From Desulfobacteraceae bacterium (GTDB taxonomy: Bacteria > Desulfobacterota > Desulfobacteria > Desulfobacterales > SKZT01), in NCBI GenBank assembly GCA_011389745.1, contig JAABTQ010000010.1, positions 11,645-75,644 on the forward strand: a DNA stretch of 64,000 bases, written 5' to 3'. The translations under genes and the position numbers were made by a program. The notes under the pieces are model-generated. The model was not told the origin of the DNA, ran no database searches, and saw only the letters and a list, made by a program, of their open reading frames with translations. The stretch's first letter is position 1. Every line of letters begins with the position of its first letter. This document shows, piece by piece, positions 23,020-61,550 of the stretch.

Positions 23020-23142
23020 TTTAAACTCCTTACAAGGTGATGGGGGTGATAAGTAATCGCTTTGCCGGAAAGAGCCCTATGGGCACAGGAGGTGGAAAAT
23101 CGAGATCAGGTCACTTTCGGTGACCGTATTTCAATCCCTTCT

Positions 23143-31452: not shown

Positions 31453-31455
31453 AAA

Positions 31456-33147: not shown

Positions 33148-33997
33148 CCATTTTTTTTGACTCGGCAATTTCCCAGATCAGGGCGGTGCCGACGATGAAA
33201 TTATTGTCTCTTTTAACCAGGGGACTGTCATCATAGACTGCGCCGGAAATATTATCCCATCTTGAATAAAAACCCAATGAAAGGTTATCGGTAAGTTTTT
33301 TTTGAAGTGTACCCGCCAGGGAAAATCCGGAATAACCGGTGTCGGATTTGTAATGGGGCCTTCCTGGTCGAACATCCTCGCGCGGCACATCATAAAAATA
33401 GCTGTTTAACTGACTGTTGGAAAAATCGATTCCCGCGTTTAATCCATAGCTCAAATCATATTTTTCAAAGCTGCTCTGGTTAAAATAGATCAGGTTCAGA
33501 CCTGAACGAAGGCCCTGATAACTGATGTTCACACCATGATCAAAACCCAGAGAGTATGCCGCCCGCAAGGCCAGTCTCAAATAAAGGGAATCCATGGGAT
33601 GACGTCCTAACATATACCATTTGATCGCAGGCCCGACCTCAAAAATGGCATCCAGACCGGACATGCCCTCACGGGCCTTGGTATCACTGCTGACCGGAGG
33701 GTTTCCATATAATGAAATATTGGTTTCAAAATAATCGCTATCATAAAAAATACCACGGATACTTTCCCGATCGGCCCGGATAATGTCTCCCCGGTAAATG
33801 ATATAGGGCAGAGGAACTACATACCATTTGTATTCATCAGAGCCACGGTAATGAGGAAGTCTGGCTGCAGCGTTAAACAGCCCGAATTCCCAGAGAGGAT
33901 ATTGTATATCCTCTTCGGAGAAAACTACACCGTTGAAAATCATAAGAAAAATTAGTATGGTTAATAACTTGTATATGATTTTCTTTAATGTTTTCAT
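33128..33997 (-). CDS. MipA/OmpV-like outer-membrane beta-barrel protein
   Basis: Start moved to MKTLKKIIYKLL..., which has a signal peptide. Alternating beta-strand pattern, RLPHYRGSDEY and GMSGLDAIFEVGP resemble the MipA family, and it has an aromatic C-terminal region. The 3' end overlaps the convergent ammonia-lyase gene by 20 nt. Confidence 0.55.
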   Translation of the reverse strand: MKTLKKIIYKLLTILIFLMIFNGVVFSEEDIQYPLWEFGLFNAAARLPHYRGSDEYKWYVVPLPYIIYRGDIIRADRESIRGIFYDSDYFETNISLYGNPPVSSDTKAREGMSGLDAIFEVGPAIKWYMLGRHPMDSLYLRLALRAAYSLGFDHGVNISYQGLRSGLNLIYFNQSSFEKYDLSYGLNAGIDFSNSQLNSYFYDVPREDVRPGRPHYKSDTGYSGFSLAGTLQKKLTDNLSLGFYSRWDNISGAVYDDSPLVKRDNNFIVGTALIWEIAESKKMVSFDDQ

Positions 33998-34060
33998 AAC
34001 CTTGTCCCTTTTATTTGTAACCCTGAATAGTTTTTTGTTTAAACGATTATGGTGATTTTT

Positions 34061-34798
34061 ATGAAAATGCAAGCACGAAATAAAAAAAAAATTTGCATTG
34101 TGATTCCTGTTTATAATCATGAAAGGACGGTCGCAGAAGTTGCACGGCAGGCGTTGAAATTAAATCTACCGGTCTTTATTGTTGATGACGGATCAAGTGA
34201 TACCAGCTATGTAAAGATCAAAAACATCAAGGGTGTACGAATATTGCGTCATTTCAGAAATCTGGGAAAGGGAGCTGCACTAATGACCGGATTTGCTGAA
34301 GCGGTAAAAGCGGATATGAATTGGGCCGTCACCCTGGATGCCGACGGTCAGCATAATCCGATGGATGCCGTATCCATGATAAGGGCAATACCCGAAAGAA
34401 AACGTCCTGTGGTAGTGGGAATCAGAATTGGAATGATCCATGGGGATGTACCATGGACAAGTCGGTTTGGAAGAAAATTTTCCAACTTCTGGGTTTTTTT
34501 ATCAGGCGGACCTAAAATGTCCGATTCACAGAGTGGTTTCAGAATATATCCTTTGCCTGAAATATTGAATCTTAACATCGTATCGAGGCGGTTTCAATTC
34601 GAGGTGGAGGTTTTAGCCAAAGCCGGATGGAAACGTATCCCGGTAGTTGAGGTTCCCATCAGTGTCAATTACTGTCCGCTGGGAAAAAGAATATCACATT
34701 TTCGTCCTTTTTTGGATTTTGTCAGAAACAGCACCACATTTACCCGGCTTATTATTCAGAGAATTTTTATTCCGTTATCCTACCGAATAAGACAATAA
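34061..34798 (+). CDS. family 2 glycosyltransferase
   Basis: ICIVIPVYNHE, VFIVDDGSSD and TLDADGQH (DxD-type) GT-A motifs. The exact start (34049/34061/34067) is uncertain. Confidence 0.8.
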   Translation: MKMQARNKKKICIVIPVYNHERTVAEVARQALKLNLPVFIVDDGSSDTSYVKIKNIKGVRILRHFRNLGKGAALMTGFAEAVKADMNWAVTLDADGQHNPMDAVSMIRAIPERKRPVVVGIRIGMIHGDVPWTSRFGRKFSNFWVFLSGGPKMSDSQSGFRIYPLPEILNLNIVSRRFQFEVEVLAKAGWKRIPVVEVPISVNYCPLGKRISHFRPFLDFVRNSTTFTRLIIQRIFIPLSYRIRQ

Positions 34799-34802
34799 AC
34801 AT

Positions 34803-37244: not shown

Positions 37245-37252
37245 TAAAAGGT

Positions 37253-38140
37253 ATGGCTGAGATTTTTTATCAGTGGATTGTTCTGTTGTCTAAAAAGTAT
37301 GGTCTCTGGATTTTTAAAACATACGCATGGATTGTGGCAACGGGCTTTTTTTTGATATTTCCATTGGGTGTGGCTGCTGGTGTTCGCTTTTATCGGGCGC
37401 TGTTTCCCAAAAAGGTTCTGTGGTTTCACCTTTGGTGCGTCTGGAGGCAGTACCATAATTTTACATCCATTTTTTTGGATCGGTTTATACTGGAAGAATT
37501 TGCTGATATTACTTACAGTTCCGAAGGATGGGAGCATATTGAAAAAGCCATTAAAGAAAAAACCGGTGGGATCATTCTCATGTCCCATATGGGCAATTGG
37601 GAGATGGCTGCACACATTTTAAAACGCAAACACCCCGAAATCCCACTTCTTTTGTACATGGGAATCAAACAGAAAGAACAGATGGAGCGACTGCAAAAGG
37701 AGAGCCTGGCCGGAACCGGAATAAAAATAATCGGCGTTGAAAAACAGAACCCGTCTCCTTTTGACATCATTGAGGGAGTCAGGTTTTTAAAAAATGGAGG
37801 CATGGTTTCTCTTACCGGTGACAGAATATGGTATGAAGGTCAAAAAAGCGTATGGACCAGGTTTTTGGGACATGAATTAAGACTTCCGGAAACACCCTAT
37901 GTTTTTTCTCTGCTTTCCGGTTCTCCATTGTTTGTTTTTTTTGCATTTCGCACGGGGCAGGGGAAATATCAATTTTCCATCGCAAAGCTTGATTGTACGA
38001 GGTCTTGTTCTAGGTCGGAAAGAAAGGAAACTGTTATGCGACTGGCTGAGCAATATGCACGATTGCTTGAGCAGGCACTTCATAATTATCCCTATCAATG
38101 GGCTAATTTTGGTTTTTTTCTGGGCAAAAGACTAAATTGA
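37253..38140 (+). CDS. LpxL/HtrB-type lysophospholipid (lipid A-like) acyltransferase
   Basis: 295-aa ORF with an N-terminal TM anchor and SHMGNWEM (HX4E catalytic motif of the LpxL/LpxM family). Confidence 0.7.
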   Translation: MAEIFYQWIVLLSKKYGLWIFKTYAWIVATGFFLIFPLGVAAGVRFYRALFPKKVLWFHLWCVWRQYHNFTSIFLDRFILEEFADITYSSEGWEHIEKAIKEKTGGIILMSHMGNWEMAAHILKRKHPEIPLLLYMGIKQKEQMERLQKESLAGTGIKIIGVEKQNPSPFDIIEGVRFLKNGGMVSLTGDRIWYEGQKSVWTRFLGHELRLPETPYVFSLLSGSPLFVFFAFRTGQGKYQFSIAKLDCTRSCSRSERKETVMRLAEQYARLLEQALHNYPYQWANFGFFLGKRLN

Positions 38141-38166
38141 TCTGTTAAACTGAGGCTATTTTGTAT

Positions 38167-38427
38167 ATGAAATTAGAGCGGGAGTACATTTTAAAGGAAC
38201 TATCCCGGATTTTTAATGAAAAATTTGAAATTAAAAATCCGGGTGTTGATGATGACTTAAGAGAAGAGTATGAGTTCGACAGTATCGATGCAATTGAGCT
38301 TCTTGTGGAGATTGAAAAGATTTTGGGATTTCCCCTGAGCCAGGAGCAAAAAAAAATGGCCATGGAGGTCCGTACAATCGAACAGATTTGCGATTATATT
38401 CAGAGAATGGAATATGTGGGGGTTTAA
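38167..38427 (+). CDS. acyl carrier protein
   Basis: 86-aa ORF from the ATG at 38167. Phosphopantetheine-attachment motif EFDSIDAIELLVEIE. Confidence 0.8.
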   Translation: MKLEREYILKELSRIFNEKFEIKNPGVDDDLREEYEFDSIDAIELLVEIEKILGFPLSQEQKKMAMEVRTIEQICDYIQRMEYVGV

Positions 38428-38471
38428 GGTGTCATAAAATTTGTTTGATAGAAGGTGTTGACTGGAGAATC

Positions 38472-39704
38472 ATGGAAAAAAAAGTTGTTATTACCGCTTG
38501 TTCTGCCCTGACACCCATCGGCCATGGCAAACAACAGATTTTGCATAGCCTGAAAAATGGTCTTTCCGGCGTTAAACCATTGTGTGATGATGGTCTTTTA
38601 TCAGATTATATTCATTCCAAAGTGTTCGGCACTATCGATTATCCGGTGGAATTTGATTTCAAACGCAGCCATCGAAAAACCATGGGGCCTGTAGCATTTT
38701 ATGCATGTCAGGTGGTCAAGGAAGTTCTGGAACAAGCAGGGCTTGATGACGATTTTATCACCTCGGGCCGTCTGGGTGTGGCTTTTGGCTCCACCCATGG
38801 GAGCCCGACAATTCAGCGAAATATCTATAAAACATTTTTCAGCGGTTCAAAAGATCAGTTTTCCACTGTCAGTGCGGTAGATTATCTTAAATCGATGGTT
38901 CACACCACGGCTGTAAATATTACCAAAATGTTCGGCATAACCGGGCGAGTCATTTCTTCATCCACGGCATGCACCACAAGTAGCCAATCCATTGGTTTTG
39001 GATACGAAATGGTCAAGTTCGGGATACAGGATGCCATGATTTGCGGCGGGGCTGATGAATACGATACCACTACCGTTGCCGTATTTGATAACCTTCTTGC
39101 CTGTTCCACCGCTTTTAACGATACACCTAATCTTACACCACGTCCTTTTGAGGCCAGGCGTGATGGTCTGGTTGTGGGTGAAGGTGCCGGGGCAGTGCTG
39201 CTCGAGGAATATAACCGGGCTAAAAAACGCGGCGCTGATATTTTGGGTGAAGTGATCGGGTTTTCCTGCAATAACAATGGTGGTGATCTGATTTTGCCCA
39301 ATGCCAAGGGTATTAAAGAAACCATTCGATTGGGTCTTGAAAGCGCAAAAATAAAGGCCGAAGATGTGGACTTAATCAGTGCCCATGCAACAGGGACCAA
39401 GATGGGTGATGTGATTGAAGCTCAGGCGATTCACAGTATTTTCAGTGACACTGTTCATGTCACAGGATTGAAAAGCTATATGGGCCATACCATGGGAACC
39501 TGCGGTGTTATTGAAACCATTATCGCTTTGTACATGATGGAAAAAGGATTTATCGCTCCGACGTTAAACCTTGAAAAAATAGACAAGCGATGTGCAATGA
39601 TCAAACATGTCACAGACCTGGTGGATTCGGAAATCCGAATTGCACTGGTTCAGAACTTTGCATTCGGCGGTGTGAATACATGCCTGATCCTGAAAAAAGT
39701 GTGA
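38472..39704 (+). CDS. beta-ketoacyl-ACP synthase (elongating KAS I/II type)
   Basis: Start at the ATG at 38472, with a GGAGAA RBS. Cys-His-His triad contexts are SSTACTTSSQS, SAHATGT and YMGHTMGTCG. C-terminal NFAFGGVNTCLIL. Confidence 0.9.
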   Translation: MEKKVVITACSALTPIGHGKQQILHSLKNGLSGVKPLCDDGLLSDYIHSKVFGTIDYPVEFDFKRSHRKTMGPVAFYACQVVKEVLEQAGLDDDFITSGRLGVAFGSTHGSPTIQRNIYKTFFSGSKDQFSTVSAVDYLKSMVHTTAVNITKMFGITGRVISSSTACTTSSQSIGFGYEMVKFGIQDAMICGGADEYDTTTVAVFDNLLACSTAFNDTPNLTPRPFEARRDGLVVGEGAGAVLLEEYNRAKKRGADILGEVIGFSCNNNGGDLILPNAKGIKETIRLGLESAKIKAEDVDLISAHATGTKMGDVIEAQAIHSIFSDTVHVTGLKSYMGHTMGTCGVIETIIALYMMEKGFIAPTLNLEKIDKRCAMIKHVTDLVDSEIRIALVQNFAFGGVNTCLILKKV

Positions 39705-39717
39705 TTTTGAACCAATA

Positions 39718-40506
39718 GTGATGCAACCTTTTTTTAAACATATAAAACCCGCGGCTGATTTAATCCTCACACTGATTTACTGGACCTATTTTACGTTGGG
39801 ATATATCATTTTTTTTCTTCCTTTGTATTTGTGGTCGGCATTTTTTTCAAAAGATCCTGAACAGTCATTTCAGAAATTGAACCATCTTTTCTACAAAGGA
39901 TTTTTTGGTCTGGTAAGATCCATAACTCCAGGGTTGAACTTTGATATTGATGAGCAGGTGTTGTCTGTTCGTTCTTCAATTATTGTCTGCAACCACATAT
40001 CGTATCTTGATCCTATCCTTTTGATTTCTTTATATGAAAAGCATAAAACCATTGTAAAGAATATATTTTTTAAACTCCCTGTTTTCGGATGGGTTTTGAA
40101 ACGATCAGGATATATGCCATCGGCTTCCGATGCAAAATTAAGTGAAGTAATGCTCCGACAGGTTGAAGGCATGCACGAGTATCTGGCTTCGGGAGGTAAC
40201 TTGTTTGTGTTTCCCGAAGGAACCCGGAGTCGTGACGGCAACATTGGAAAATTTGAAAAAGGCCTGTTCAAGATCGCCAGGTTCTGTCATGCACCTGTAA
40301 AGGTATTTTTCATTCAAAATTCCAATCGGTTGTTTTATCCGGGTAAATTTTTGTTCAATACCTGCACGAAAAACGTAATCAAACTAAAACTCATCGGAGA
40401 GATTACCTTTGATAAACAAGGCAAAATGCCTCCTGTTGATGATATGATTGGAATGGTGCGCTCGATGATGGAAACATATAACATGGATTCCGGAAAAAAA
40501 TCATGA
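39718..40506 (+). CDS. PlsC-family 1-acyl-sn-glycerol-3-phosphate-type acyltransferase
   Basis: N-terminal TM segment, HX4D motif in CNHISYLDP, and the FPEGTRS motif. Confidence 0.8.
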   Translation: MMQPFFKHIKPAADLILTLIYWTYFTLGYIIFFLPLYLWSAFFSKDPEQSFQKLNHLFYKGFFGLVRSITPGLNFDIDEQVLSVRSSIIVCNHISYLDPILLISLYEKHKTIVKNIFFKLPVFGWVLKRSGYMPSASDAKLSEVMLRQVEGMHEYLASGGNLFVFPEGTRSRDGNIGKFEKGLFKIARFCHAPVKVFFIQNSNRLFYPGKFLFNTCTKNVIKLKLIGEITFDKQGKMPPVDDMIGMVRSMMETYNMDSGKKS

Positions 40507-42020
40507 AAATCGCTTTAATCTCCATGCCCGATGTCACGCCGTTCATAATACATGAAACCGCAGTGCATATGCCCAATCTGGGCATTGCAAGTATTGGGGC
40601 CAATATAGACGAAAAGCACGAGGTCTATGTTATTGATCTGATCCGAAAGCGACGTCAGGTTCGAAAATATCTCACCAGGACCCTTTTGAAAATACGGCCG
40701 GATTTGGTAGGGTTATCGGCCATGACCTGGCAATTTGATACCTGTGTGAAAATCATCAGGCTGATCAAAAGATTGTTGCCCCATGTCGGAATCGTCATCG
40801 GCGGATACCATACAACACTGATGTATAAAGAAATTGCCGCATCTGATGAGTCTGAATTGATTGATTTTATGATAAGGGGGGAAGGGGAGGAAGCTTTCAG
40901 AAGGCTGGTTGATGCATTAGACGGGAAAGACCGGTTCAAGGACATTGCGTCGCTATCATATAAGATAGCTTCGGAACAGATGAATCCGCAAAAAAAAGAG
41001 GAGAATCTTTTTATCCATAATCCAAAGGGTGACCTGTTGGATTTGTCCCGGATAAAACTGCCCATTCGTGACAAGAGGCGACTGACCTGGGGATATCATG
41101 TATTGTACAATAAAATTGAAGTGATGGAAACATCACGCGGATGTACCCGGTCCTGTAATTTTTGCAGTATCCGCCATATGTACGGCAAAAGCTTCAGGGT
41201 TTATCCTGTGGAGAGGGTTCTGGCCGACCTTGACGATATCTACTACAACCGTAAGACCCGTTGGGCATTCATTGCCGATGATAACCTGGTTTTGGCCCCT
41301 GAAAGGGTGATTGAACTCTGTGAAGCCATTTGTCGGAAAAGGTATAAAAACTTCAACCTGGTGATCCAGGCTGATTGTATTTCAATGGCCAAAAATGAAA
41401 CAATGGTCGAAAAATTGGCGCAGGCAGGAGTAAGATCCGTTTTTCTGGGCATTGAAAATGCCTCTCCAAAAAATCTCAGAGCAGTTCACAAGGGAGATAT
41501 TACACAGGCTGCGGTCAAAGCCGTTTCCAATTGCCATCGATACGGAATTATGGTGATCGGTGGGCTGATCCATGGCTTTCCTGATGATGATGATGCGGCG
41601 ATTATCCGCAATTACGAATTTTTCAATGCGTTAAAAATCGATGCCGTCTATACTCAGATTCTAACACCGTATCCCAAAACCGGAATTCGGCAAAACCTCA
41701 AGGAGGAAGGTTTGATTACCAATCTCTATGATTACGGGTATTACAACGGGCTGTGGGCCAATGTGAAAACCAGACACTTGTCTTCAGAACAGCTTCAGTA
41801 TCTTTTCTGGTATCGTAAACAAACGGTTCTGGGATGGTGGGAGCCCTCGGAGCTTGCCAGAAGAGACGGCAAATTATGGACATCTATTTGGCGTTTAGCA
41901 TTCAGGCCGGTACTCAGATATTTTATTAACAGAAATCTTAGAAAATACGGATGGCAAGGCCGGTATCAAAAAGAACTTTTAAGGTTATCAAACATGAATC
42001 GTTTTGATGATATTAGATAA
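40503..42020 (+). CDS. B12-binding-domain radical SAM protein
   Basis: 505-aa ORF overlapping the upstream stop by 4 nt. N-terminal Rossmann-like B12-binding region (VGLSAMTWQF...VIGGYH), CX3CX2C in SRGCTRSCNFCSI, and FLGIENASP. Confidence 0.85.
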   Translation: MKIALISMPDVTPFIIHETAVHMPNLGIASIGANIDEKHEVYVIDLIRKRRQVRKYLTRTLLKIRPDLVGLSAMTWQFDTCVKIIRLIKRLLPHVGIVIGGYHTTLMYKEIAASDESELIDFMIRGEGEEAFRRLVDALDGKDRFKDIASLSYKIASEQMNPQKKEENLFIHNPKGDLLDLSRIKLPIRDKRRLTWGYHVLYNKIEVMETSRGCTRSCNFCSIRHMYGKSFRVYPVERVLADLDDIYYNRKTRWAFIADDNLVLAPERVIELCEAICRKRYKNFNLVIQADCISMAKNETMVEKLAQAGVRSVFLGIENASPKNLRAVHKGDITQAAVKAVSNCHRYGIMVIGGLIHGFPDDDDAAIIRNYEFFNALKIDAVYTQILTPYPKTGIRQNLKEEGLITNLYDYGYYNGLWANVKTRHLSSEQLQYLFWYRKQTVLGWWEPSELARRDGKLWTSIWRLAFRPVLRYFINRNLRKYGWQGRYQKELLRLSNMNRFDDIR

Positions 42021-51159: not shown

Positions 51160-51223
51160 CATGAGCCTGCCATTCCGAGGGAGCGATCTGCAAAGTGTCA
51201 GGTATCTTAAAAATCCCCCTAAA

Positions 51224-51252
51224 TCCCCCTTTTTCATAACAGGGGGACTTTT
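51224..51252 (+). terminator. putative rho-independent terminator
   Basis: TCCCCCT-TTTTCATAAC-AGGGGGA followed by CTTTTGTG. Confidence 0.45.
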
Positions 51253-51328
51253 GTGTCCTTTCGGTAAGGAGTGGTGATTATGCCAAAGATAGACACCAAA
51301 GAGGATAACCGATAGATCCTGAAGTGGA

Positions 51329-52993
51329 TTGCAAGTTGATTTTGGAATTTCAATTTTGAAGAAAGTTGGCAGACTCGTGAAACGGGAACGAATCAAAACC
51401 CTTAAAAAATCGCTGTTTGTAAACCTTCTGTTTCTTTCCGTGGTCATGGTTCTGCTTTTTGGAGCCCTGATGTCCACAATTCTGTACTATAGTGGAGTAA
51501 ACAACGCATACGCGGTTATTCATAATAAGAACCAAGCCGCTACCAACTACATACAGGGAAATTTCACGCCTCTGAGGTCCGCGGTACAGTTCCTGGCCCA
51601 GAAACCGGAGGTGATTTACGCGGTTGAAGATCCTCTTTTGCAGAAAGAAAAGGCCTTATCGCTGTTTGAAATCCTCAAGAATTCTCTTCCAAATATCAAT
51701 TACATTTATTCCGGATATGAGGATGGAACGCTTTTAATCAATGACTATTCCCCGCCAAAGGGCTATGATCCGAGAAAACGGCCATGGTACCTGGCAGCCT
51801 TAAAGACGGCACCGGATATATCCGGCGGTATCCCTTACCGGGAGGCCAAAACTAGTGAGTGGTTGGTATCCTTCAGTAAGGTTTTGACCGACGATACCGA
51901 TAATATTTATGGAGTAATCGCCATAGACTCCTCCATGGACGCGGTTACAAAAATTCTTTCTGAGCGTGATCCGGCTTATTCTTCTTCGTATAGTTTCGTG
52001 GTTGATGGCGAGGGGACGGTTATCATTCACCATCGTGAGGACCTTCTTGGGAAGGAATTTAAGAAAATTGTAGATACTGAAGATGACTTTTCCAGGTCTG
52101 CTGGTCGTACGGGTTATATCTTTGAACAACGAAGCAAAATCGCCTACCACACCCGGCTGGAATCCCTGGGATGGATTGTGGTTACCGTGGTTGATAAATA
52201 CGAGATACTTAAATTCCTGATAGTCAAAATTTTGCTCAGCATTGCGGTTGTTATAGCAGTGAGCCTGCTGGTTGGACAATTTATTAGCCGCACGCTCAGC
52301 AATAACATAATAGCACCTTTGAGAACGCTGGAACAGCGGGTTAAAGCGGCAATATCAGGTTCTTCTCAGACAGATTATCATGATCCAACAAATCCTCCCT
52401 CAGTTTCGCGGTATAACGAGATCGATTCAATAGCAAATGCCATAGAAGAATTAACCGAGCGGGCTCTGTTTCGGAAGAATCAGGAACTGGAGACCAAAAA
52501 TGAACTGCTGGAAAAGCTTTCCCAAACCGATTACCTCACTGGCCTGCTAAACCGCCGGAAAATTTATGAAGACCTGGAAAAAGAGTATCAGCGCGCCATG
52601 CGGTATGGCGGCACGTTTTCAATCATCATCTTTGATATTGACTGGTTCAAAAGCATCAATGACACGTACGGTCACGATGCAGGAGATCAGGTAATTAAAG
52701 AAGTGGCGGATATTTTCAGGTCAATGCTTCGCACCACGGACAGTTTGGCACGATGGGGCGGGGAAGAGTTTTTGATCCTCTGCCCGGGAACAACCCTGGA
52801 AGGCTCCGCTGCAATTGCACAAAAAATTCAAGCCGCTATTGGAGAAAACCGCTTTTCTGTGCCAAGAAAACTAACAATAAGCGCGGGAACCTGTGAATAT
52901 AATTCCAGCCTCTCACTGGAGGATTTGCTTATTGCAGCAGATCGCAAACTCTACGAAGCTAAGTCCCGGGGAAGAAACCGGGTGGTGTTTTGA
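51329..52993 (+). CDS. diguanylate cyclase with extracytoplasmic Cache-type sensor domain
   Basis: 554-aa ORF; the start is uncertain because the first codon is TTG. One TM, then a ~250-aa periplasmic domain with Cache-like features (KRPWYLAA), a second TM, then GGDEF with DWFKSINDTYGHDAGD and the GGEEF active site. Confidence 0.85.
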   Translation: MQVDFGISILKKVGRLVKRERIKTLKKSLFVNLLFLSVVMVLLFGALMSTILYYSGVNNAYAVIHNKNQAATNYIQGNFTPLRSAVQFLAQKPEVIYAVEDPLLQKEKALSLFEILKNSLPNINYIYSGYEDGTLLINDYSPPKGYDPRKRPWYLAALKTAPDISGGIPYREAKTSEWLVSFSKVLTDDTDNIYGVIAIDSSMDAVTKILSERDPAYSSSYSFVVDGEGTVIIHHREDLLGKEFKKIVDTEDDFSRSAGRTGYIFEQRSKIAYHTRLESLGWIVVTVVDKYEILKFLIVKILLSIAVVIAVSLLVGQFISRTLSNNIIAPLRTLEQRVKAAISGSSQTDYHDPTNPPSVSRYNEIDSIANAIEELTERALFRKNQELETKNELLEKLSQTDYLTGLLNRRKIYEDLEKEYQRAMRYGGTFSIIIFDIDWFKSINDTYGHDAGDQVIKEVADIFRSMLRTTDSLARWGGEEFLILCPGTTLEGSAAIAQKIQAAIGENRFSVPRKLTISAGTCEYNSSLSLEDLLIAADRKLYEAKSRGRNRVVF

Positions 52994-53188
52994 TCACATC
53001 GGTCGGATCGGTTACTTAGGACTCATTTTTTATATTTTTATTGACAAAAAGCAAGTTCCTATTTATTTGAGTCACATAAAGCGGATACGGGCAGCGGGTA
53101 TCCAGCGTCGGTAAAAGGCGCAACCCTGGATGTGCTGAATAGTTACGAAAGATTTTACTGAGTGCTGTTGAGAGGGGCAGGTTTTGGA

Positions 53189-54520
53189 ATGATCATCAAG
53201 AAACAGTACTACTGGGGGTACCTGGCTGTTCTACTGAGCTTGCTGCTCACCTATGCGATCTATTTCGGATCGATGTGGTTCTACGACGACTGGTACGATT
53301 ACCCCTTGAAATATCTGGCCAAGCTCGGGAGCATGGGAACCACGATACTGATGTGCTGGGCCCTTTTGCTGGCCGCGAGGCTGCGTGTCGTAAACCGGCT
53401 GTTCGGGGGGATGGACAAGGTCTACAAGGCACACCACAAGTTTGGCGAAGCCGCGTTGTATTTCATTTTCCTGCACCCGATATTTCTCGCCCTGAATCCC
53501 GAATTCGACTTCTTTCGTTTTTTTTGGATCGCGCAACTGCCCGGCGAAGCGGGACATTACTATCTTGCCCGGATGACCGGCCTGGCTGCCCTGGCGGCTC
53601 TTGTCGGACTGACGTCGTTGTCGTTGTGGTTCTCGCTGCCCTACCACCACTGGAAACAGACGCACAATTTTTTCGGGCTGGTGCTGGTACTGGTCATCTT
53701 CCACGCAGTCGTTGCCCAGGGTGAAATCATGTCGTATCCGGTGCTGGCGACGTGGTTTGCCGTGTGGGCCGGGGTGGGAGTGTGCTGCTATTTCTACATC
53801 CGGGTGCTCTACCGCTGGTTCGGGCCGATCCATGACTATCTGGTGGATCATATTTGGACCCTGGGTGACATCACCGAAGTCCATCTGCGCCCTCGGGATC
53901 CGGACCGGAAGATGGCCTTTCAACCCGGCCAGTTCCTGTACGTCTACTTCGAATCGTCGGATCTGAGAGCCGAGCCCCATCCTTTCAGCATTTCATCGGC
54001 TCCCCAGGCCGGAAACATCCGGATTTCCGTCAAGAAGATGGGCGACTGGACGGAACAGCTTCCCGTCCTGAAGCAGGGGCAGCGTGCCTTTGTCTGGGGG
54101 CCCTACGGCAAGTTTGGCGACCACATGGCTGAACATGCGGAAAAGGAAATTGTGATGCTGGCCGGCGGGATCGGAATCACGCCCTTCTTGAGTATGGTGG
54201 AGAACGAGGATTTCCGGGCGGGCAAATACAACAAGGCCTATCTTTTCTACAGCGTAGACGAATCCGAAGAAGCCTATTACCACGACGAAATTACGGAACT
54301 TGGCCTGAGGGAAGAGTACCTGCACTACATTCCCCACTCTTCCGACTCCGAAGGCTATCTCACGCTGGAGGACATCGAGGACCGGGTGGGCGGCGACCTG
54401 AAGGCGAGGGTTTATCTGATCTGCGGACCGAAGATGATGATGGACTCGCTGCGGGAACAGCTCATGGAAGCCGGTGTGCCCGTTGAACAAATCTTCACGG
54501 AAGACTTCAGCATCATCTGA
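53189..54520 (+). CDS. NOX/ferric-reductase-like membrane flavocytochrome (ferric reductase TM domain + FAD + NAD(P)H domains)
   Basis: Start at the ATG at 53189. Two His pairs 12-13 residues apart sit in adjacent TM helices (HHKFGEAALYFIFLH; HNFFGLVLVLVIFH). FAD motif HPFSISS, NAD(P)H motif GGIGITPF, and LICGP near the C-terminus. Confidence 0.75.
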   Translation: MIIKKQYYWGYLAVLLSLLLTYAIYFGSMWFYDDWYDYPLKYLAKLGSMGTTILMCWALLLAARLRVVNRLFGGMDKVYKAHHKFGEAALYFIFLHPIFLALNPEFDFFRFFWIAQLPGEAGHYYLARMTGLAALAALVGLTSLSLWFSLPYHHWKQTHNFFGLVLVLVIFHAVVAQGEIMSYPVLATWFAVWAGVGVCCYFYIRVLYRWFGPIHDYLVDHIWTLGDITEVHLRPRDPDRKMAFQPGQFLYVYFESSDLRAEPHPFSISSAPQAGNIRISVKKMGDWTEQLPVLKQGQRAFVWGPYGKFGDHMAEHAEKEIVMLAGGIGITPFLSMVENEDFRAGKYNKAYLFYSVDESEEAYYHDEITELGLREEYLHYIPHSSDSEGYLTLEDIEDRVGGDLKARVYLICGPKMMMDSLREQLMEAGVPVEQIFTEDFSII

Positions 54521-54627
54521 AATCATTGACGTTACGCACGGATCCAATCCGGCGGAAACGGCAAGTTACGCTGAACCAAGGCCAACCCCAATCGGGGCGA
54601 ACAGTTGCATCAATCGGGAGGGACGAC

Positions 54628-55452
54628 ATGAACCAGGAATTTCCAAAACCGTCGGATATTCTGGACGGACAGACCGCCGTGGTCACCGGCGGCAGTTCGG
54701 GCATCGGCGCGGGCATTGCCCGGGCTCTGGGCGAGGCCGGGGCCAACGTGGTGGTGAACTATTCCAGCAGCAGGGAGGGGGCCGAGGAGGTCGTCGCGGG
54801 GATCAGGGAACAGGGCTCCCAAGCCATTGCCGTCCAGGCCGACGTGAGCAGCGAGTCGGATGTGGAGGCCATGTTCCGCAGGGGCGTGGAGTCCTTCGGC
54901 ACCGTGGACATCCTGATCAGCAACGCCGGAGTGCAGCAGGACGCGGAGTTTACGGAGATGACCCTGGAGGAATGGAACATGGTCATCAGCATCAACCTGA
55001 CCGGAGCCTTCCTCTGCGCCCGGGCCGCAACCCGGGAATTTCTCCGCCGGGGCATGGTTCCAAAGCGTTCTTCAGCCCTGGGCAAGATCATTTTCGTCAG
55101 TTCGGTGCATGAAATAATACCCTGGGCCGGACGGGTGAACTACGCGGCGTCCAAGGGCGGACTGATGCTGTTCATGAAAAGCATCGCCCAGGAGCTGGGA
55201 GCAAAGGGAATCCGCGTGAACAGCATCGCTCCCGGCGCGATCAGGACGTCCATCAATCGTGAATCCTGGGATGACCCGGAGGCGAAGGCCGAACTGTTAA
55301 AGCTGATCCCCCGCAATCGAATCGGAGATCCCTCGGATATTGCCAAGGCGGCCTTGTGGCTGGCTTCAGATGATTCTGACTACGTGCACGGCACGAGTCT
55401 GGTGGTGGACGGAGGCATGACACTTTATCCCGGATTCATCTCCGGGGGGTGA
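54628..55452 (+). CDS. short-chain dehydrogenase/reductase (glucose 1-dehydrogenase-like)
   Basis: Start at the ATG at 54628, with a GGGAGGGA RBS. TGGSSGIGAG, NNAG-type SNAG, catalytic YAASKGG, and PGAIRT. Confidence 0.9.
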   Translation: MNQEFPKPSDILDGQTAVVTGGSSGIGAGIARALGEAGANVVVNYSSSREGAEEVVAGIREQGSQAIAVQADVSSESDVEAMFRRGVESFGTVDILISNAGVQQDAEFTEMTLEEWNMVISINLTGAFLCARAATREFLRRGMVPKRSSALGKIIFVSSVHEIIPWAGRVNYAASKGGLMLFMKSIAQELGAKGIRVNSIAPGAIRTSINRESWDDPEAKAELLKLIPRNRIGDPSDIAKAALWLASDDSDYVHGTSLVVDGGMTLYPGFISGG

Positions 55453-55499
55453 ACCGTCCCTGGGACCGCCACACCCCAGTGCGGCAAGGATTATTCAGC

Positions 55500-55724
55500 T
55501 CACATCTGGAATACATCCGGCCCCCATATAGGCGTGAAGCCTTTTGGCTTCCGCATCTTTCCAGCGGAAGCCAAAAACTCTCCTGCTCCTCGCACTCGTA
55601 CTGTTTGATGTTCGGCTGCGGCCTTACGCACGATTTGTGCAAGCTCCGTTTCGCTTTCGGGAACAGCAATGGTTGCCGGCGTAAACCGGAGGCTTCCGGA
55701 CCGGTTCGACCGTTTGTTAGACAT
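55500..55724 (-). pseudogene. N-terminal remnant of an FAD-linked (PCMH-type) oxidase, gulonolactone/arabinonolactone-oxidase-like
   Basis: The 74-aa ORF SNRSGSLRFTPATIAVPESETELAQIVRKAAAEHQTVRVRGAG matches the N-terminus of FAD_binding_4 oxidases (NWSGN..F.P..I..P.SE.EL..IV..A...G..VRV.G.GHS). Similarity then stops, and the frame runs into the convergent SDR gene. Confidence 0.5.
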
Positions 55725-55757
55725 ATACTCTCCTGTTTGTTTTTGTGGCTATATCCT

Positions 55758-56372
55758 TCATTGTTCGATAAGAATAGCTCTGGCCGGGGCTCCGTCGGCC
55801 TCGATCCGCAATGGTAATCCGGCAAAAGTATATCGACCGGCGGAAACTTTCCTGAGATCAAGCCCTTCAAATACAGTCATGGAACCGATGAGGATATCGT
55901 GGATCTTGCCGCCGTTCTGGAAAGGCTCTACACTCAGGTAATCCACACCCAAGGTTTTCACACTACGTTCCACCAGGTAAACCGCCCCGTCTTCTGTTAA
56001 GTGGGCATAGTCTTCGCGGAAATAATCATAACCTTTCAGGGAATTTTCAGTCTTGAGCAGCAGGATTAATCCTACGGGTATATCCTGCTCCTGAAGATGA
56101 TCGACAGTGATTTCTTGACCTTTGCCGGTCATATCCAGCACAATGCAAGGACCATAAAGGCTTTCCAAGGGTAGTTCAGCAACGCTACTGCCACCTGTTT
56201 CTATATGCAGCCGTGAGTCAACGTGAGTACCAGTATGGCTTCCCAGAAATAAAGTTGACTCATTTACGCCTGCTTCTTCTGCCTTTTTGTATTGTTCGAT
56301 GCGGGGGGAAGGATTGCCCGGATAAACAATCATATCCGGACGGATCTCCATGGATATATCGATGATTTTCAT
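55758..56372 (-). CDS. cyclase family protein (kynurenine formamidase-like metal hydrolase)
   Basis: 204-aa ORF. IIDISMEI...GSHTGTHVDS motif. Its start overlaps the GH15 stop (ATGA). Confidence 0.8.
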   Translation of the reverse strand: MKIIDISMEIRPDMIVYPGNPSPRIEQYKKAEEAGVNESTLFLGSHTGTHVDSRLHIETGGSSVAELPLESLYGPCIVLDMTGKGQEITVDHLQEQDIPVGLILLLKTENSLKGYDYFREDYAHLTEDGAVYLVERSVKTLGVDYLSVEPFQNGGKIHDILIGSMTVFEGLDLRKVSAGRYTFAGLPLRIEADGAPARAILIEQ

Positions 56373-58309
56373 TTGTTTTCCTTATAGTTTTCGTTTCCTG
56401 TTGTTCCGGCATGGGCATATCCAATCGGGTTCTCCCTATGTTTGGGAGTGCCTACGGGATCATGCTCAGGGATTTCTAATCCATGGGCGTATGCCAGGTA
56501 AAGGCTGCTGTTTATCAGGCCGATGTGAGTGAAGGCCTGGGGAAAATTTCCTAAAAATTCTCCGGTTTCCGGATCGATCTGTTCTGCATAGAGCCCCAGA
56601 TGGTTGGAATGATCGACGATGTTGTTGAAAATTCGTTCCGCTTCGTCGATCCGATTCGAAAGCGCCAGAACATCCACCAGCCAGAAAGTGCAAAGCCCAA
56701 AAGCGCCTTCTTCGCCGGGAAGACCATCGTCCGAGATATACCGGTATACGAGGTCATTTTCCATGAGATCTTCCATTATCCTGTTCACGGTACCTTGGAT
56801 ACATGGGTCGGTGGCCGGCAGGAACTCCATCAGGGCTATGCGCAGATTGACTGCATCCATCTCTTTGGAACCATAGGACTGAACAAAACTGTTCAAGTCC
56901 TTGTCGAAACCTTTCTGCATAACCTCCTCACGGATCCGCTCCTGCTCAGCTTGCCAGCGCTCAATGTTGCCCTCGAGACCGTAGTGTCTGGCCAAAAGCA
57001 GTGCCCGGTCCAAGGCAACCCATGCCATAACTTTGGAATAAACAAAATGACGCGGCTCACCCCGTACTTCCCAGATTCCATAATCAGGCCGCTCCCACAC
57101 CTCGACCACATAATCGGCAACCCAAGCGATGAACTTGGCTATATCTTTCGTAAATTGATGCCCTCGCCGGGCCAGTTCATAGGCTGTGCTTACAAGCTCG
57201 CCATAAACCTCGAGTTGAAACTGATCAAAGGCTTTATTACCGATATTCACTGGTTTTGAGCCTTTGTAGCCCTCTAAGTGCTCGAGCTCAAATTCCTCCA
57301 GATCTGTTTCGCCGTGTAAACCATACATGATCTGCAGTTCGCGGTTGCATTCCATGCAAGTTTTTGAAACCTCCTCGAACCAATGCAAAAGATCGACAGC
57401 TTCTTCTTGGTGGCCGATAGAGATCAGTGCTTGTGCGGTCATGGCTGCATCCCTGATCCAGGCATAACGATAATCCCAGTTGCGCACTCCTCCGATATGT
57501 TCCGGCAATGAAGTGGTCGGGGCTGCGGCAAAGGAGCCGGTGTCGGCTATGTTCATGAGTTTGAAGACCAGGGCGGATCGGGTAACCATCCGGCTCTGGT
57601 CTCCGGCCCAGACCCGCTTTTCGACAAGACCCTCGCGGTCAGCCCAATCGCTCCATGTTTTTAAGGTGGTTTCAAGCGCACTGATTGTTTTGTCTATATC
57701 GTGGCGAGAGTTATTATTAGATCCCCAGCGAATTACAATGGCTTTAGAATCCCCGGGATCAAGGCGGAATCTTGCTCGTAGAAAGGATCCGTAATTATCT
57801 TCTACCAGCTTTTCGTTTTCAAGTCCTTCTATGTTTAGGATATCAGGACCACAACGGGCGATCCAACCTGTGGCCGATTTTTCCATGCCCGTCGTTTTCC
57901 GGGCGTAATCGAGCCGGGGGGCCCAAATGATCTCTACTTCCACCGAACCACTCTGACACTCAAGAAGCCGGTGAATTTCAGGTGGAGCTTTTGAACCATT
58001 TCGACCATTAATATCTCCCTCCAAAGGCATGAAGTCAACTATGGAAAAAGATGATTCATCCAATTGGAACTGGGTCTTAAGTACATTCGTATCCCCTATA
58101 TATTTTTGGGTGCCGATCCCACCACCAGCCGGAGAAATTTTGCAAAAGCCTCCTCGATGAGCATCCAAAATAGATGCAAAAACAGATGGGCTACCCATCC
58201 TGGGAAGGCAGCACCAATCAATGGAACCATCCTTTGAGATAAGTGCGACGCTCCTAAGGTTGCCGATAATTCCGTAATCGGAAATAGCTTTATAACCGTT
58301 ATTATTCAT
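56369..58309 (-). CDS. glycoside hydrolase family 15 (glucoamylase/trehalase-like)
   Basis: 646-aa ORF. The N-terminal ISDYGIIGNLRSVALISKDGSIDWCCLPRMGSPSVFA is characteristic of bacterial GH15. (alpha/alpha)6 region motifs are NWDYRYAWIRDA and GIWEVRGE. Confidence 0.85.
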   Translation of the reverse strand: MNNNGYKAISDYGIIGNLRSVALISKDGSIDWCCLPRMGSPSVFASILDAHRGGFCKISPAGGGIGTQKYIGDTNVLKTQFQLDESSFSIVDFMPLEGDINGRNGSKAPPEIHRLLECQSGSVEVEIIWAPRLDYARKTTGMEKSATGWIARCGPDILNIEGLENEKLVEDNYGSFLRARFRLDPGDSKAIVIRWGSNNNSRHDIDKTISALETTLKTWSDWADREGLVEKRVWAGDQSRMVTRSALVFKLMNIADTGSFAAAPTTSLPEHIGGVRNWDYRYAWIRDAAMTAQALISIGHQEEAVDLLHWFEEVSKTCMECNRELQIMYGLHGETDLEEFELEHLEGYKGSKPVNIGNKAFDQFQLEVYGELVSTAYELARRGHQFTKDIAKFIAWVADYVVEVWERPDYGIWEVRGEPRHFVYSKVMAWVALDRALLLARHYGLEGNIERWQAEQERIREEVMQKGFDKDLNSFVQSYGSKEMDAVNLRIALMEFLPATDPCIQGTVNRIMEDLMENDLVYRYISDDGLPGEEGAFGLCTFWLVDVLALSNRIDEAERIFNNIVDHSNHLGLYAEQIDPETGEFLGNFPQAFTHIGLINSSLYLAYAHGLEIPEHDPVGTPKHRENPIGYAHAGTTGNENYKENK

Positions 58310-58564
58310 AGGTTCGAACCTCCTTTTAATATGAGTTTCTGATTTCGCCGCTTCCCAATGCCATCCAGAATCTGTCTTACAAGAACATGGTTTTAAGTTT
58401 TAGACATAATGATTGACAGTTTAATTCCGAGCCTCAGATTGATGTGGTGCGATCCAACCCGCACAGACTCATCATTGGGCTCCGACGAGCTAATGACCGG
58501 TCCATATAGCCCATGATGGGTCTGTGCTGGTCGTCTCAAATAAAAAAAATATTCATAAAAAAAA

Positions 58565-58823
58565 AGACCTGCCTTCCTTGCAAACGTGGGTTATAAAAAG
58601 GTGTTAATTTCTTAATCTACCCTAAAACAGAGCCATAACCAAGGAGGCAGGTCATGAACAGTGTAAAATTTATCGGTATGGATGTCCACAAAAAACGATC
58701 ACTATTACCATCGCTGAAGAAGGCAGCCGGCTGGAGTTTACGGCACCATTAACAACGAGTTTGATTCCGGTCGGGTCTAATGTTGCCGGACCCTGTTTGA
58801 ATTGCAGAAGACCCGACCGGTAA
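58565..58823 (+). mobile_element. IS110-family transposase 5' fragment (frameshifted, truncated remnant) with RBS-sequestering inverted repeat
   Basis: From the ATG at 58654: MNSVKFIGMDVHKK, then by frame shifts ITITIAEEGS and VYGTINNEF, which is the IS110 N-terminal DEDD-region pattern (MDVHK..I.IA......YGTI.N). It ends about 170 nt in. GACCTGCCTTCCTTG (58565-58580) is complementary to CCAAGGAGGCAGGTC (58639-58653), which covers the RBS. Confidence 0.6.
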
Positions 58824-58827
58824 TTTT

Positions 58828-60156
58828 TTATGTATGGGCTATTTTGTTCCCCATGATATCTTCCTGAAAAATTTCCATCCCTTTTTTCATGGCACAAAAA
58901 TCACCGCACATAGTACAGGTTTTCTCCTCTTCCGGGGATCTTTCACACCGGATTTGCCGGGCGATTTGGGGAAACAGCAGATATTTTTCCAGGTCTTGCC
59001 AGCGCATATCCCTGCGGGCCATTGAGGCCTGCATTTCCGCCTTTCTCAGATGTGGGTATTTGCATAGATCCCCGATCTTTACCGCCAGACGGGTGACTCT
59101 GACGCCTTCACGCACATCGCTGATGTTCGGAAGTGCCAAATGTTCCGCCGGAGTAATATAACATACCAAGTCAGCCCCAAAACGGGCTGAATTTGCGGCA
59201 CCGATGGCTGCTGTGACATGATCGTAACCCGCACCTGTGTCACATGGAATCGGTCCCAGAACATAATACGGGGCGTTGCCGCTCATGCGCTTTTCTAAGA
59301 TGATATTGGCTTCTATTTCATCCAGGGGCACATGACCCGGACCTTCCACCATGGTCTGGCAACCCATTTGCCTTCCCAATTCGGCCAGTTCACAATTAAT
59401 TACCATCTCGGCCATTTGAGCGCGGTCATGACTGTCATGGATCGCACCGGCCCGAATACCGTTTCCCAGGGAAAGCACGGCGTCATATTTTTTCATTAAT
59501 CCGCAGACCCTGTCGAACTGTTCATATAAGGGATTTTCTTTGTTGTTGGCATCCATCCATGCCACCATAAATGTGCCCCCCTTACTGGCCAGGCCACCGT
59601 AGCGAAACCCTTGTTTTCTCAATCGTTCAATGGAAAACTGGTTGATACCGCAATGGATAGCCATAAAACTAATCCCGTCCTCGAGTTGTTTTTCAATAAG
59701 TTCAAACAAAAATTCAGGGTCCATCCGGGCTGGATTATGGTATTTACGGGCGGTTTCCTTAAAAGCCTGGTAAAGAGGAACATTGCCCACCGGAATATTG
59801 ACAGCGGAAATGACTTCTTGTCTTACCCTGTCAAGATTGCCGCCGGTGGACAGCTCCATGAGAGTATCGGCTTTTTCTTCCTGAGCCGCTTTGGCTTTTT
59901 GAATCTCAGCGTCAATGTCGCAAATATCGGAAGATGTCCCGATAGAAGCATTCACTTTGGTCCGAAGTCCATATCCGATTCCGACTATTTCCTGATGAGG
60001 GCGGTTGGGATTTAAGGGAATAACAATTTCTCCTCTGGCCACGCGATCCAATACGGATATGGGATCGATATTTTCTGTCCGGGAGATTTGTTCCATCTGA
60101 TGGGTGGTAATACCTTCTCGGGCCAATTCCAGCTGAGTTTTCATAAATTCCTCCAT
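58828..60156 (-). CDS. ThiC-family radical SAM enzyme; probable 5-hydroxybenzimidazole synthase (BzaF-type) rather than thiamin ThiC
   Basis: 442-aa ORF that is ThiC-like throughout (GIVSRGG-equivalent core, HVPL, C-terminal CTMCGDFCAMK cluster motif). Its leader carries a cobalamin riboswitch instead of a TPP riboswitch. The family call is secure; the BzaF assignment is inference. Confidence 0.85.
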   Translation of the reverse strand: MEEFMKTQLELAREGITTHQMEQISRTENIDPISVLDRVARGEIVIPLNPNRPHQEIVGIGYGLRTKVNASIGTSSDICDIDAEIQKAKAAQEEKADTLMELSTGGNLDRVRQEVISAVNIPVGNVPLYQAFKETARKYHNPARMDPEFLFELIEKQLEDGISFMAIHCGINQFSIERLRKQGFRYGGLASKGGTFMVAWMDANNKENPLYEQFDRVCGLMKKYDAVLSLGNGIRAGAIHDSHDRAQMAEMVINCELAELGRQMGCQTMVEGPGHVPLDEIEANIILEKRMSGNAPYYVLGPIPCDTGAGYDHVTAAIGAANSARFGADLVCYITPAEHLALPNISDVREGVRVTRLAVKIGDLCKYPHLRKAEMQASMARRDMRWQDLEKYLLFPQIARQIRCERSPEEEKTCTMCGDFCAMKKGMEIFQEDIMGNKIAHT

Positions 60157-60225
60157 TCTGTTTATTCAAAAAAGGTTTGAAATAAATGACCAGAGTGGAT
60201 GTCTGACTGCCTTTGGGGAGCCCTC

Positions 60226-60500
60226 AAAAAATAAAAGGGCTCCAACAGGGTCTAACAGACCCGCTGAAACCCTTTTCCATCAGATTCTCAGCTGTCACCG
60301 TCCGATTCGTCTTCTGACTTGCCCGACTCAGTGCCCGGCCTTCCCATCCCATATGCGACCACAACAGATTCAAGTGCGGCACTTCGGGAAAATATTTCCC
60401 GCAAATGGACAGTGGCAAAAAATGCACGGAGTTTAAAATATCGGGCTTACAGCGCCGGGTGCGTCATGGACTTTCACCATGTTCCGTTAATCGGTCAGCG
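60226..60500 (-). promoter_or_regulatory. cobalamin (B12) riboswitch with terminator-type expression platform
   Basis: Minus strand, in consensus order: AACGGAA-CAT-GGTGAAAGTCC-ATGACGCACCCGGCGCTGTAAGC, GCCACTG, GGGAAGGC and B12-box AAGTCAGAAGAC. P1 is CCGATT (60489-60494) / GAATCGG (60302-60308). Downstream, AAAAGGG...CCCTTTT + ATTTTTT (60226-60277) forms a terminator-like hairpin. Confidence 0.75.
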
Positions 60501-60563
60501 CTCCACATAGCAATTTGGATCCAATAAAAAAAACCGCCCGTATTGTCAAGACAAATGTTTCTT

Positions 60564-61550
60564 TTAAGCCCATTCAACCTGGTTTCTTCCGTTGTTTTTT
60601 GCCATAAACAATTGCCGGTCCGCTTTTTCAACAAGGGTTGACATGTCCATGTTCTGTTCAGGGATTACCGTCGCACCTCCGATGCTGATCGTAATCTTTT
60701 TTGAGGCCGAAGAAAATTCATGAACAATATTTAATTGTTCAACCGCTTCCCTGATGGTTTCACAAAGTTGATAAGCTTTATCCGCAGATGTTTTTGGCAA
60801 GACGATTCCGAATTCCTCCCCGCCATATCGAGAAACCAGGTCATATGGGCGTTTCAAATTACGCCTGATTTCACTTGCCAGGGATATCAGAACCCGATCA
60901 CCCTTGGCGTGCCCATAATTATCATTGAACTGTTTGAAGTAATCCACATCCGCTATTGCTACCGATATGAAATTCTGGTAACGGATGGCCCGGTGCCATT
61001 CACGTCGCAATGCCGAATCAAAATAACGCCTGTTGGGAATCTCTGTAAGGCCGTCAATATGGGCCAGTGTCTCCAATAGTTTTCGATGCCGGACCATTGT
61101 CAGTATATTTCTGACACGAGCCAGAACAATTGATGGTATAAAGGGCTTTTTAATGTAATCCACAGCGCCCAGGCTAAGTCCTGCTTCCTCATTTCTTAAT
61201 GAGTGAAGTGCGGTGATAAAAATTACAGGAATATTTTGGGTTTGCTGATTGCTTTTTAATTGGTGGATTACCTGGAAACCGTCCATTTCAGGCATCATCA
61301 CATCTAACAGGATCAGGTCGGGTGGATTGGATGCGATCATCTCCAATGCCTGCTTTCCACTTTCAGCCTGGTCGAGGATATAGTATTGTTTAAGTAATCC
61401 GACAAGGAGCTTGAGACTGATTCTATCATCGTCAACAATCAATATTCGGGCTTTAGTTGATAGAACATCGGCAACATTCAAGGCTATCTGATCAAATTTT
61501 TCCACAAATTCAGGGGTACTGTTTTCATTCATTTTAATATATTCAATCAT
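60564..61550 (-). CDS. response regulator receiver-GGDEF diguanylate cyclase (PleD/WspR-like)
   Basis: Start taken at the ATG at 61550, one nt after the upstream stop; 61532 or 61598 are possible. REC motifs ILIVDDD and DLILLDVMMPEMDGF. GGDEF domain has DYFKQFNDNYGHAKGD and GGEEF. Confidence 0.85.
   Translation of the reverse strand: MIEYIKMNENSTPEFVEKFDQIALNVADVLSTKARILIVDDDRISLKLLVGLLKQYYILDQAESGKQALEMIASNPPDLILLDVMMPEMDGFQVIHQLKSNQQTQNIPVIFITALHSLRNEEAGLSLGAVDYIKKPFIPSIVLARVRNILTMVRHRKLLETLAHIDGLTEIPNRRYFDSALRREWHRAIRYQNFISVAIADVDYFKQFNDNYGHAKGDRVLISLASEIRRNLKRPYDLVSRYGGEEFGIVLPKTSADKAYQLCETIREAVEQLNIVHEFSSASKKITISIGGATVIPEQNMDMSTLVEKADRQLFMAKNNGRNQVEWA

Follow-up and report, generated by a model that had tools for sequence, protein, structure and literature searches.

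ThiC paralogues in anaerobic lower-ligand synthesis

BzaF, the 5-hydroxybenzimidazole synthase (EC 4.1.99.23), is a radical S-adenosylmethionine (radical-SAM) paralogue of ThiC, and the enzymes of Geobacter sulfurreducens and Desulfuromonas acetoxidans were reportedly described by Hazra and colleagues and by Mehta and colleagues in 2015. Two other ThiC paralogues, BzaA and BzaB, yield 5-hydroxybenzimidazole in Eubacterium limosum and Moorella thermoacetica, and their genes are found downstream of cobalamin riboswitches (PMC6461909). The subject here is a gene in a stretch of 64,000 nucleotides from a Desulfobacteraceae bacterium (assembly GCA_011389745.1, contig JAABTQ010000010.1, positions 11,645 to 75,644), the whole of this stretch being called the window. 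With a probability of roughly 0.9, as judged from sequence comparisons, region 58828-60144 of the window encodes BzaF under the control of a termination-type cobalamin riboswitch. The system is of a kind already known: Shelton et al. 2019 (PMC6461909) listed the clade under bzaF, and the window adds one member to the clade.

The gene resembles the bzaF genes of Geobacter and Desulfuromonas in being a single ThiC paralogue of about 435 amino acids with no bzaA-bzaB tandem, in coding for Asn in place of ThiC Asp383 within the consensus sequences VNASIGTS and SLGNG.RAGA, in having close orthologues that score in the same range of the BzaF hidden Markov model (HMM), and in the association of such genes with cobalamin riboswitches and cobT. 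It differs from them in that it is solitary, with neither cobT nor other cob genes within the 64 kb, and in that its source is uncultured. Like the BzaA/BzaB pair, it is a ThiC paralogue behind a cobalamin riboswitch, but it has no tandem partner, and its score against the NCBIfam model for BzaB (TIGR04386) is 475.4 bits, under the cut-off of 700. With ThiC itself (structures 3EPM and 4S25) the product shares the family PF01964, the conserved Glu, His and Arg residues, the cysteine cluster and, as would be expected, the substrates aminoimidazole ribotide (AIR) and S-adenosylmethionine, whereas it has Ser for Asn228 and Asn for Asp383, is governed by a cobalamin instead of a thiamine pyrophosphate (TPP) riboswitch, falls in a separate neighbour-joining clade, and has only 41.5% identity to the true ThiC that related genomes carry in addition to its orthologue.

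The active site and the placement of the protein

The gene is placed as follows.

58828..60144, minus strand: bzaF-type gene for a 438-amino-acid radical-SAM ThiC paralogue, predicted to be a 5-hydroxybenzimidazole synthase from PF01964 and the active-site signature

The Pfam ThiC family covers the full length of the product (563.6 bits, residues 3-421), and the open reading frame (ORF) is intact, keeping the three C-terminal Cys, GPGH, YDH and Arg231. In a phmmer search of PDB, the protein matches the ThiC structures 3EPM (Caulobacter) and 4S25 (Arabidopsis) with E values of about 1e-85; the relatives in this PDB search are true ThiC alone, with no BzaF structure among them, and the alignment was used just for residue mapping (in the Arabidopsis chain, index equals residue number minus 68). 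Asp383 of Arabidopsis ThiC (AtThiC), located in GDGLRPG, corresponds in the alignment to Asn228 of the window protein in SLGNGIRAG, and Asn228 of AtThiC, in VNANIGNS, aligns with Ser67 in VNASIGTS. Ser67, Thr70 and Asn228 of the window protein thus take the places of Asn, Asn and Asp in ThiC, and the ThiC signature of Asp383 and Asn228 (AtThiC numbering) is absent from it. According to excerpts of two papers, Asp383 is among the few active-site differences between ThiC and BzaF and is Asn in BzaF (PMC12661338), and the ThiC variants D383A and N228D form no hydroxymethylpyrimidine phosphate (HMP-P) while D383N is partly active (PMC11117688). The combination Ser67/Thr70/Asn228 is found in 120/120 database matches and in 80 of the 81 locus translations, the exception being a frameshifted gene (L074).

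Furthermore, the protein can be related to profile models that were made for this distinction. In the excerpted text of Shelton et al. 2019 (PMC6461909), HMMs of BzaA, BzaB and BzaF were built to set Bza proteins apart from other ThiC homologues; the BzaF model has a trusted cut-off of 564.1 bits and gives 640.4 bits to BzaF of G. sulfurreducens and 649.9 bits to that of D. acetoxidans. The same source lists three close relatives of the window protein: SMC51215.1 of Desulfobacterium vacuolatum DSM 3385 (P0046 in our set; 648.4 bits), WP_022666479.1 of Desulfospira joergensenii (P0073; 653.8 bits) and WP_028580504.1 of Desulfobulbus japonicus (P0095; 648.8 bits), whose full-length identities to the window protein are 78, 79 and 77%, respectively. 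In the portions of the BzaF model that were compared (nodes 41-83 and 213-234), the consensus at the two signature sites reads VNASIGTS and SLGNG[IL]RAGA, and the window protein agrees with both; in these portions, the model gives Asn at the former site and Asp at the latter no more than background probability.

In a neighbour-joining tree, for which anonymous metagenome representative proteins served as outgroups, the window protein stands in a Ser-Thr-Asn clade, joining P0121 and then P0122, and the Asp-bearing ThiCs, that is, both solved structures and a ThiC clade of Desulfobacterales, lie far from this clade (the tree carries no bootstrap values). An earlier note on this DNA, made from the letters alone, had preferred BzaF to ThiC and had looked to the true ThiC clade for an answer to the contrary; the tree sets the protein apart from that clade, and the preference is upheld by the BzaF signature, by the 77-79% identity to proteins scored with the BzaF HMM, and by a TPP-linked ThiC in relatives (see below).

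The riboswitch leader and its expression platform

The 64-kb window was scanned with Rfam covariance models, and the B12 box and the P1 strands were located by reading the window sequence. The elements in front of the gene are given in the order of transcription.

60544..60549, minus strand: TTGACA, a possible -35 hexamer for the leader transcript; CTTGAC is invariant in the window and in L001-L003
60489..60494, minus strand: 5′ strand of the P1 helix, CCGATT, whose partner strand is 60302-60307
60309..60485, minus strand: aptamer core of the cobalamin riboswitch (Rfam RF00174)
60309..60319, minus strand: B12 box AGTCAGAAGAC, aligning with the conserved 3′ end of the Rfam model and invariant in L001-L003
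60302..60307, minus strand: 3′ strand of the P1 helix, AATCGG, whose partner strand is 60489-60494
60225..60276, minus strand: intrinsic terminator, a hairpin of about 20 bp (-29.1 kcal/mol) with TTTTTT directly after it
60151..60200, minus strand: predicted post-terminator hairpin, ATCCACTCTGG (60190-60200) pairing with CAGAATGGAG (60151-60160), overlapping the Shine-Dalgarno sequence in part
60150..60154, minus strand: Shine-Dalgarno sequence GGAGG, unchanged in relatives and 5 nt ahead of the ATG at 60144

L001, L002 and L003 are the loci with the three closest leaders. The cobalamin element reaches 58.6 bits, the gathering score being 31.5 (E=5.7e-12 over the whole window), and is the sole Rfam match above the gathering score in the 64 kb. 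A permissive search of 58000-60700 (E<=10) recovered the same cobalamin match and no TPP element. These results agree with the earlier note, which had put an aptamer, a B12 box, a P1 helix and a terminator on the coding strand and had seen no convincing TPP aptamer: all of the elements are present at or beside the places where it had seen them, and the scan returned a cobalamin riboswitch without TPP instead of the reverse. In the alignment with the three closest leaders, a variable pair of P1 is A-U in the window, G-C in L001 and L003, and G-U in L002, which is a compensatory pattern, that is, covariation.

The leader conforms to the transcription-terminating class of RF00174 in its B12 box, P1 helix, terminator and score over the gathering threshold, and departs from it in two respects: the match in the window is local (model positions 47-167 by cmscan) with a 55-nt unaligned insertion inside the aptamer, and the leaders of the window, L002 and L003 score 55-59 bits compared with 70-110 bits in the other orthologous leaders. 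TTGACA at 60544-60549 is possibly the -35 element of the leader promoter; a promoter scan did not return it, and a clear -10 hexamer was not seen.

The terminator, situated between the aptamer and the gene on the minus strand of the window, was found with RNAfold and was overlooked by a consensus terminator scan because the stem and loop limits of that scan are narrow. A hairpin with a T-run is present in all 77 orthologous leaders that carry RF00174 (median -24.5 kcal/mol), and hairpins of -15 kcal/mol or lower are found in 70/77 of them versus 4/231 shuffled leaders. Stem sequences vary from lineage to lineage among the leaders that were inspected one by one. The post-terminator hairpin of ATCCACTCTGG and CAGAATGGAG is predicted in the window and L001-L003 and in 2/77 other leaders; its stems are invariant and its loop is variable, with no covariation. 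This hairpin, specific to the sub-lineage, may be an extra translational layer or plain mRNA structure. The start codon is most likely the ATG at 60144, giving a protein of 438 amino acids, because GGAGG precedes it and because the alternative ATG further upstream, at 60156, does not share the reading frame in L003.

Taken as a riboswitch, the leader would bind a cobamide and repress the gene, and the best-supported reading of this arrangement is a negative feedback loop. When cobamide is plentiful, the aptamer and P1 would be stabilised, and the hairpin with its U-run would terminate transcription before the coding region; when it is scarce, read-through would give the bzaF mRNA. The enzyme would then convert AIR to 5-hydroxybenzimidazole, the first step of anaerobic synthesis of a benzimidazole lower ligand, and the base would presumably be activated for attachment by a CobT encoded elsewhere in the genome.

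Orthologous loci and their cobamide genes

An ortholog scan with one genome per species gave 80 loci at 70-89% identity, all from Desulfobacterales or Desulfobulbales. In 77 of them, RF00174 (55-110 bits) immediately precedes the gene on its coding strand, and Rfam found no TPP element upstream on the bzaF coding strand in any of the 80. The three loci that have no RF00174 are L018 and L038, with less than 90 nt of upstream sequence, and L066, where the gene lies inside a cob operon. CobT is the enzyme that activates the benzimidazole base, and cobT (PF02277) follows the bzaF-type gene immediately in 34/80 loci. In L066 (105-5391), the order is cbiJ-cobS-(ORF with an AP_endonuc_2 domain)-cobU-bzaF-cobT, the sole such arrangement among the 80 loci, and no riboswitch was found within 3 kb of the bzaF-type gene. 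At least 35 loci have the gene either co-transcribed with cobT or lying among cob genes. An adjacent cobT is missing in 46/80, several of these loci being truncated, and riboswitch-bzaF units standing alone are common. Proteins 90-96% identical to that of the window are present in other samples of the database search. In Desulfobulbales, a UvrC-like ORF and an ABC-type ATPase, both judged by sequence only, recur beside the gene.

Two loci of this set show additional features. In L074 (3001-4288), an orthologue of 81% identity is frameshifted, and its translation ends after 78 amino acids; it would be either a pseudogene or an assembly error of the metagenome-assembled genome (MAG). In L075, from a Desulfocapsa MAG, a group II intron domain (RF00029, 45 bits) is matched at 119-263, about 1 kb upstream of the riboswitch.

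Separate true ThiC in related genomes

Some relatives carry both kinds of the protein. L082, L085 and D. joergensenii each have an additional ThiC of 427 amino acids besides the BzaF-type gene. In L082, a TPP riboswitch (6998-7103, minus strand) lies directly upstream of the lone 427-amino-acid ThiC, which has the motifs KVNVNLG and SLGDGLRPG and is the protein to which the window protein shows 41.5% identity; about 3 kb away, on the opposite strand, a cobalamin riboswitch is followed by the BzaF-type gene and cobT. In L085 (6700-11284), the 427-amino-acid ThiC is the last gene of thiS-thiG-thiH-thiF-thiE-thiC, with bzaF-cobT opposite, and Rfam (L030) puts a TPP riboswitch just before thiS. 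In D. joergensenii, the gene of the true ThiC, WP_022665427.1, has a TPP riboswitch directly in front of it, and the BzaF-type protein, WP_022666479.1, is encoded behind a cobalamin riboswitch together with cobT. Among the Bza matches listed in the excerpt of PMC6461909, the latter appears and the former does not. In the taxa concerned, the clade of the 427-amino-acid ThiC and the BzaF clade show equal conservation.

Alternative explanations

A BzaF-clade enzyme whose product or role is not that of Geobacter, for instance a step on a route to 5-methylbenzimidazole or the supply of a free benzimidazole with no attachment in the producing cell, is distinctly unlikely. According to the excerpt of PMC6461909, which lists Krautler 1988, Desulfobulbus propionicus and Desulfobacterium autotrophicum are reported makers of 5-methylbenzimidazolyl cobamide, and the base listed for D. 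propionicus, which is not 5-hydroxybenzimidazole, is outside the four explained by the bza genes. The published bza scheme spans 5-hydroxybenzimidazole, 5-methoxybenzimidazole, 5-methoxy-6-methylbenzimidazole and 5,6-dimethylbenzimidazole alone, and D. propionicus has an orthologue (P0118) 78% identical to the window protein. The solitary position of the gene, in the window as in 46/80 loci, can be added to this. Against it, the signature residues and HMM scores are indistinguishable from those of characterised BzaF, there is no conserved additional partner beside the gene, the recurrent neighbours being housekeeping-like by sequence, and an altered downstream fate would leave the BzaF reaction itself unchanged. 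If 5-methylbenzimidazole were the end product, either further enzymes would turn 5-hydroxybenzimidazole into it or the product of the clade would differ from that of Geobacter BzaF. That the BzaF clade of Desulfobacterales and Desulfobulbales is an entry point to a benzimidazole outside the bzaABCDEF scheme is a tentative idea, which we regard as rather unlikely.

Several points weigh against the assignment to BzaF, and some of them would favour a genuine ThiC, that is, an HMP-P synthase under cobalamin control, which might couple thiamine synthesis to B12 status, for example. The window protein passes the cut-offs of the ThiC equivalogs of NCBIfam (NF009895, 550.9 bits with a cut-off of 410; TIGR00190, 507.1 bits with a cut-off of 460), and NCBI and UniRef call all orthologues ThiC. 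Both facts bear out the earlier note in its remark that the gene could be mis-annotated as thiC. These NCBIfam matches are non-discriminating, because the library has models for ThiC and BzaB and none for BzaF. AtThiC D383N retains partial HMP-P activity according to the excerpt of PMC11117688, so that Asn at this position alone is compatible with ThiC chemistry. The link to the BzaF HMM runs through scored proteins of 77-79% identity and consensus residues at two sites. In addition, cobT, cobS, cobU and bzaC are absent from the window, and thiamine genes adjoin the bzaF-type gene in 10/80 loci.

The thiamine neighbours, however, are divergent from bzaF in these ten loci and have their own TPP riboswitch pointing away; in the loci examined, it drives thiS-thiG-thiH (in L012, L013, L023 and L039, it is upstream on the minus strand). 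Adjacency to thiSGH was thus considered and rejected as a sign of ThiC function, and the thi-adjacent loci hold two paralogues and two riboswitch classes back to back. Furthermore, the two active-site residues are replaced in 200/200 members of the clade, in agreement with the BzaF HMM consensus, the relatives own a distinct, TPP-controlled ThiC with Asn and Asp, which in L085 is within a thi operon, and the at least 35 loci with cobT co-transcription or cob-gene embedding speak for cobamide synthesis. A genuine ThiC is accordingly very unlikely, and BzaF is the assignment kept here.

It is extremely improbable that the locus is decaying, with a non-functional gene or an orphan riboswitch left by a 3′ insertion associated with an insertion sequence (IS): a genome-specific insertion of 7.7 kb, an IS110-like fragment 4 nt from the stop codon and the frameshift of the orthologue in L074 are in its favour, but the insertion is situated past the stop codon of a full-length ORF with its cysteines and motifs intact, the protein has relatives of 90-96% identity in other samples, and the leader keeps an intact aptamer, P1, terminator and Shine-Dalgarno sequence, all of them conserved with L001-L003.

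Surroundings of the gene in the window

The bzaF-type gene is the only ThiC-family match in the window, and neither cobT nor a second ThiC-family gene was found in the 64 kb, so the earlier note was right to call it solitary. One further feature lies beside its stop codon.

58654..58823, plus strand: adjacent frameshifted N-terminal fragment, IS110-transposase-like and non-functional; ORF MNSVKFIGMDVHKK..., weak tblastn

This fragment forms the bzaF-proximal edge of an insertion at 51160-58837, which is specific to this genome, missing from L001-L003, and contains a dCache-GGDEF protein, a ferric-reductase-like membrane protein, an SDR, a putative cyclase and a GH15 glycoside hydrolase. Probably, the segment of 7.7 kb is an insertion associated with a mobile element. 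The earlier note had described an IS110 remnant abutting the stop codon. A fragment does lie there, while its identity as IS110 is weakly supported: the frameshift-corrected peptide has no Pfam match, and tblastn relates it at E ~0.01 to plasmid genes annotated as IS110 family transposase, which hints at such an origin. The same note saw the IS remnant in place of a cobT-type partner. Displacement of cobT by an IS element is rejected, since in L001, L002 and L003, whose proteins are 80-90% identical, bzaF leads straight into a convergent moeA pair with neither an IS nor an adjacent cobT, the partner being missing also in many of the other loci (46/80 as above). The solitary state of the gene is ancestral to the sub-lineage and not caused by the IS.

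Elsewhere, the window codes for an MttB-family methyltransferase and for a B12-binding radical SAM enzyme, which count in favour of BzaF as signs of a need for cobamides. The MttB-family gene adjoins one for a BCCT betaine/choline transporter (21529-24585, minus strand). The pair of MttB and BCCT suggests corrinoid-dependent demethylation of quaternary amines and, hence, a demand for cobamide in the organism. A run of genes at 29288-42020 resembles a cluster for aryl-polyene or unusual-lipid biosynthesis, comprising a thioesterase, a DegV/Dak2 fatty-acid-kinase-like protein, an aromatic amino acid ammonia-lyase, MipA, a GT2 glycosyltransferase, an MMPL transporter, an LpxL-like acyltransferase, a ketoacyl synthase, another acyltransferase and a B12-binding radical SAM enzyme.

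Annotation of the clade and its meaning

NCBI and UniRef name the BzaF-type clade “phosphomethylpyrimidine synthase ThiC” even in genomes that have a true ThiC; for example, WP_022666479.1 and WP_022665427.1 of D. joergensenii bear the same ThiC name in both. At JGI, proteins of 90-92% identity to that of the window are named 5-hydroxybenzimidazole synthase, and the BzaF clade overall is split between the two names; this name is never given to the clade of the 427-amino-acid ThiC. The two kinds can be told apart by Ser and Asn instead of Asn and Asp at two active-site positions, by a cobalamin instead of a TPP riboswitch, and by cobT instead of thi genes as a neighbour. The window gene illustrates a persistent mis-annotation as ThiC, and its value is mainly practical, for annotation. 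Probably, the organism makes its own benzimidazolyl cobamide and limits the synthesis of the lower ligand when cobamide is high. Because databases name the BzaF clade ThiC, metabolic reconstructions of sulfate-reducing Desulfobacterota miss their capacity for benzimidazole lower ligands.

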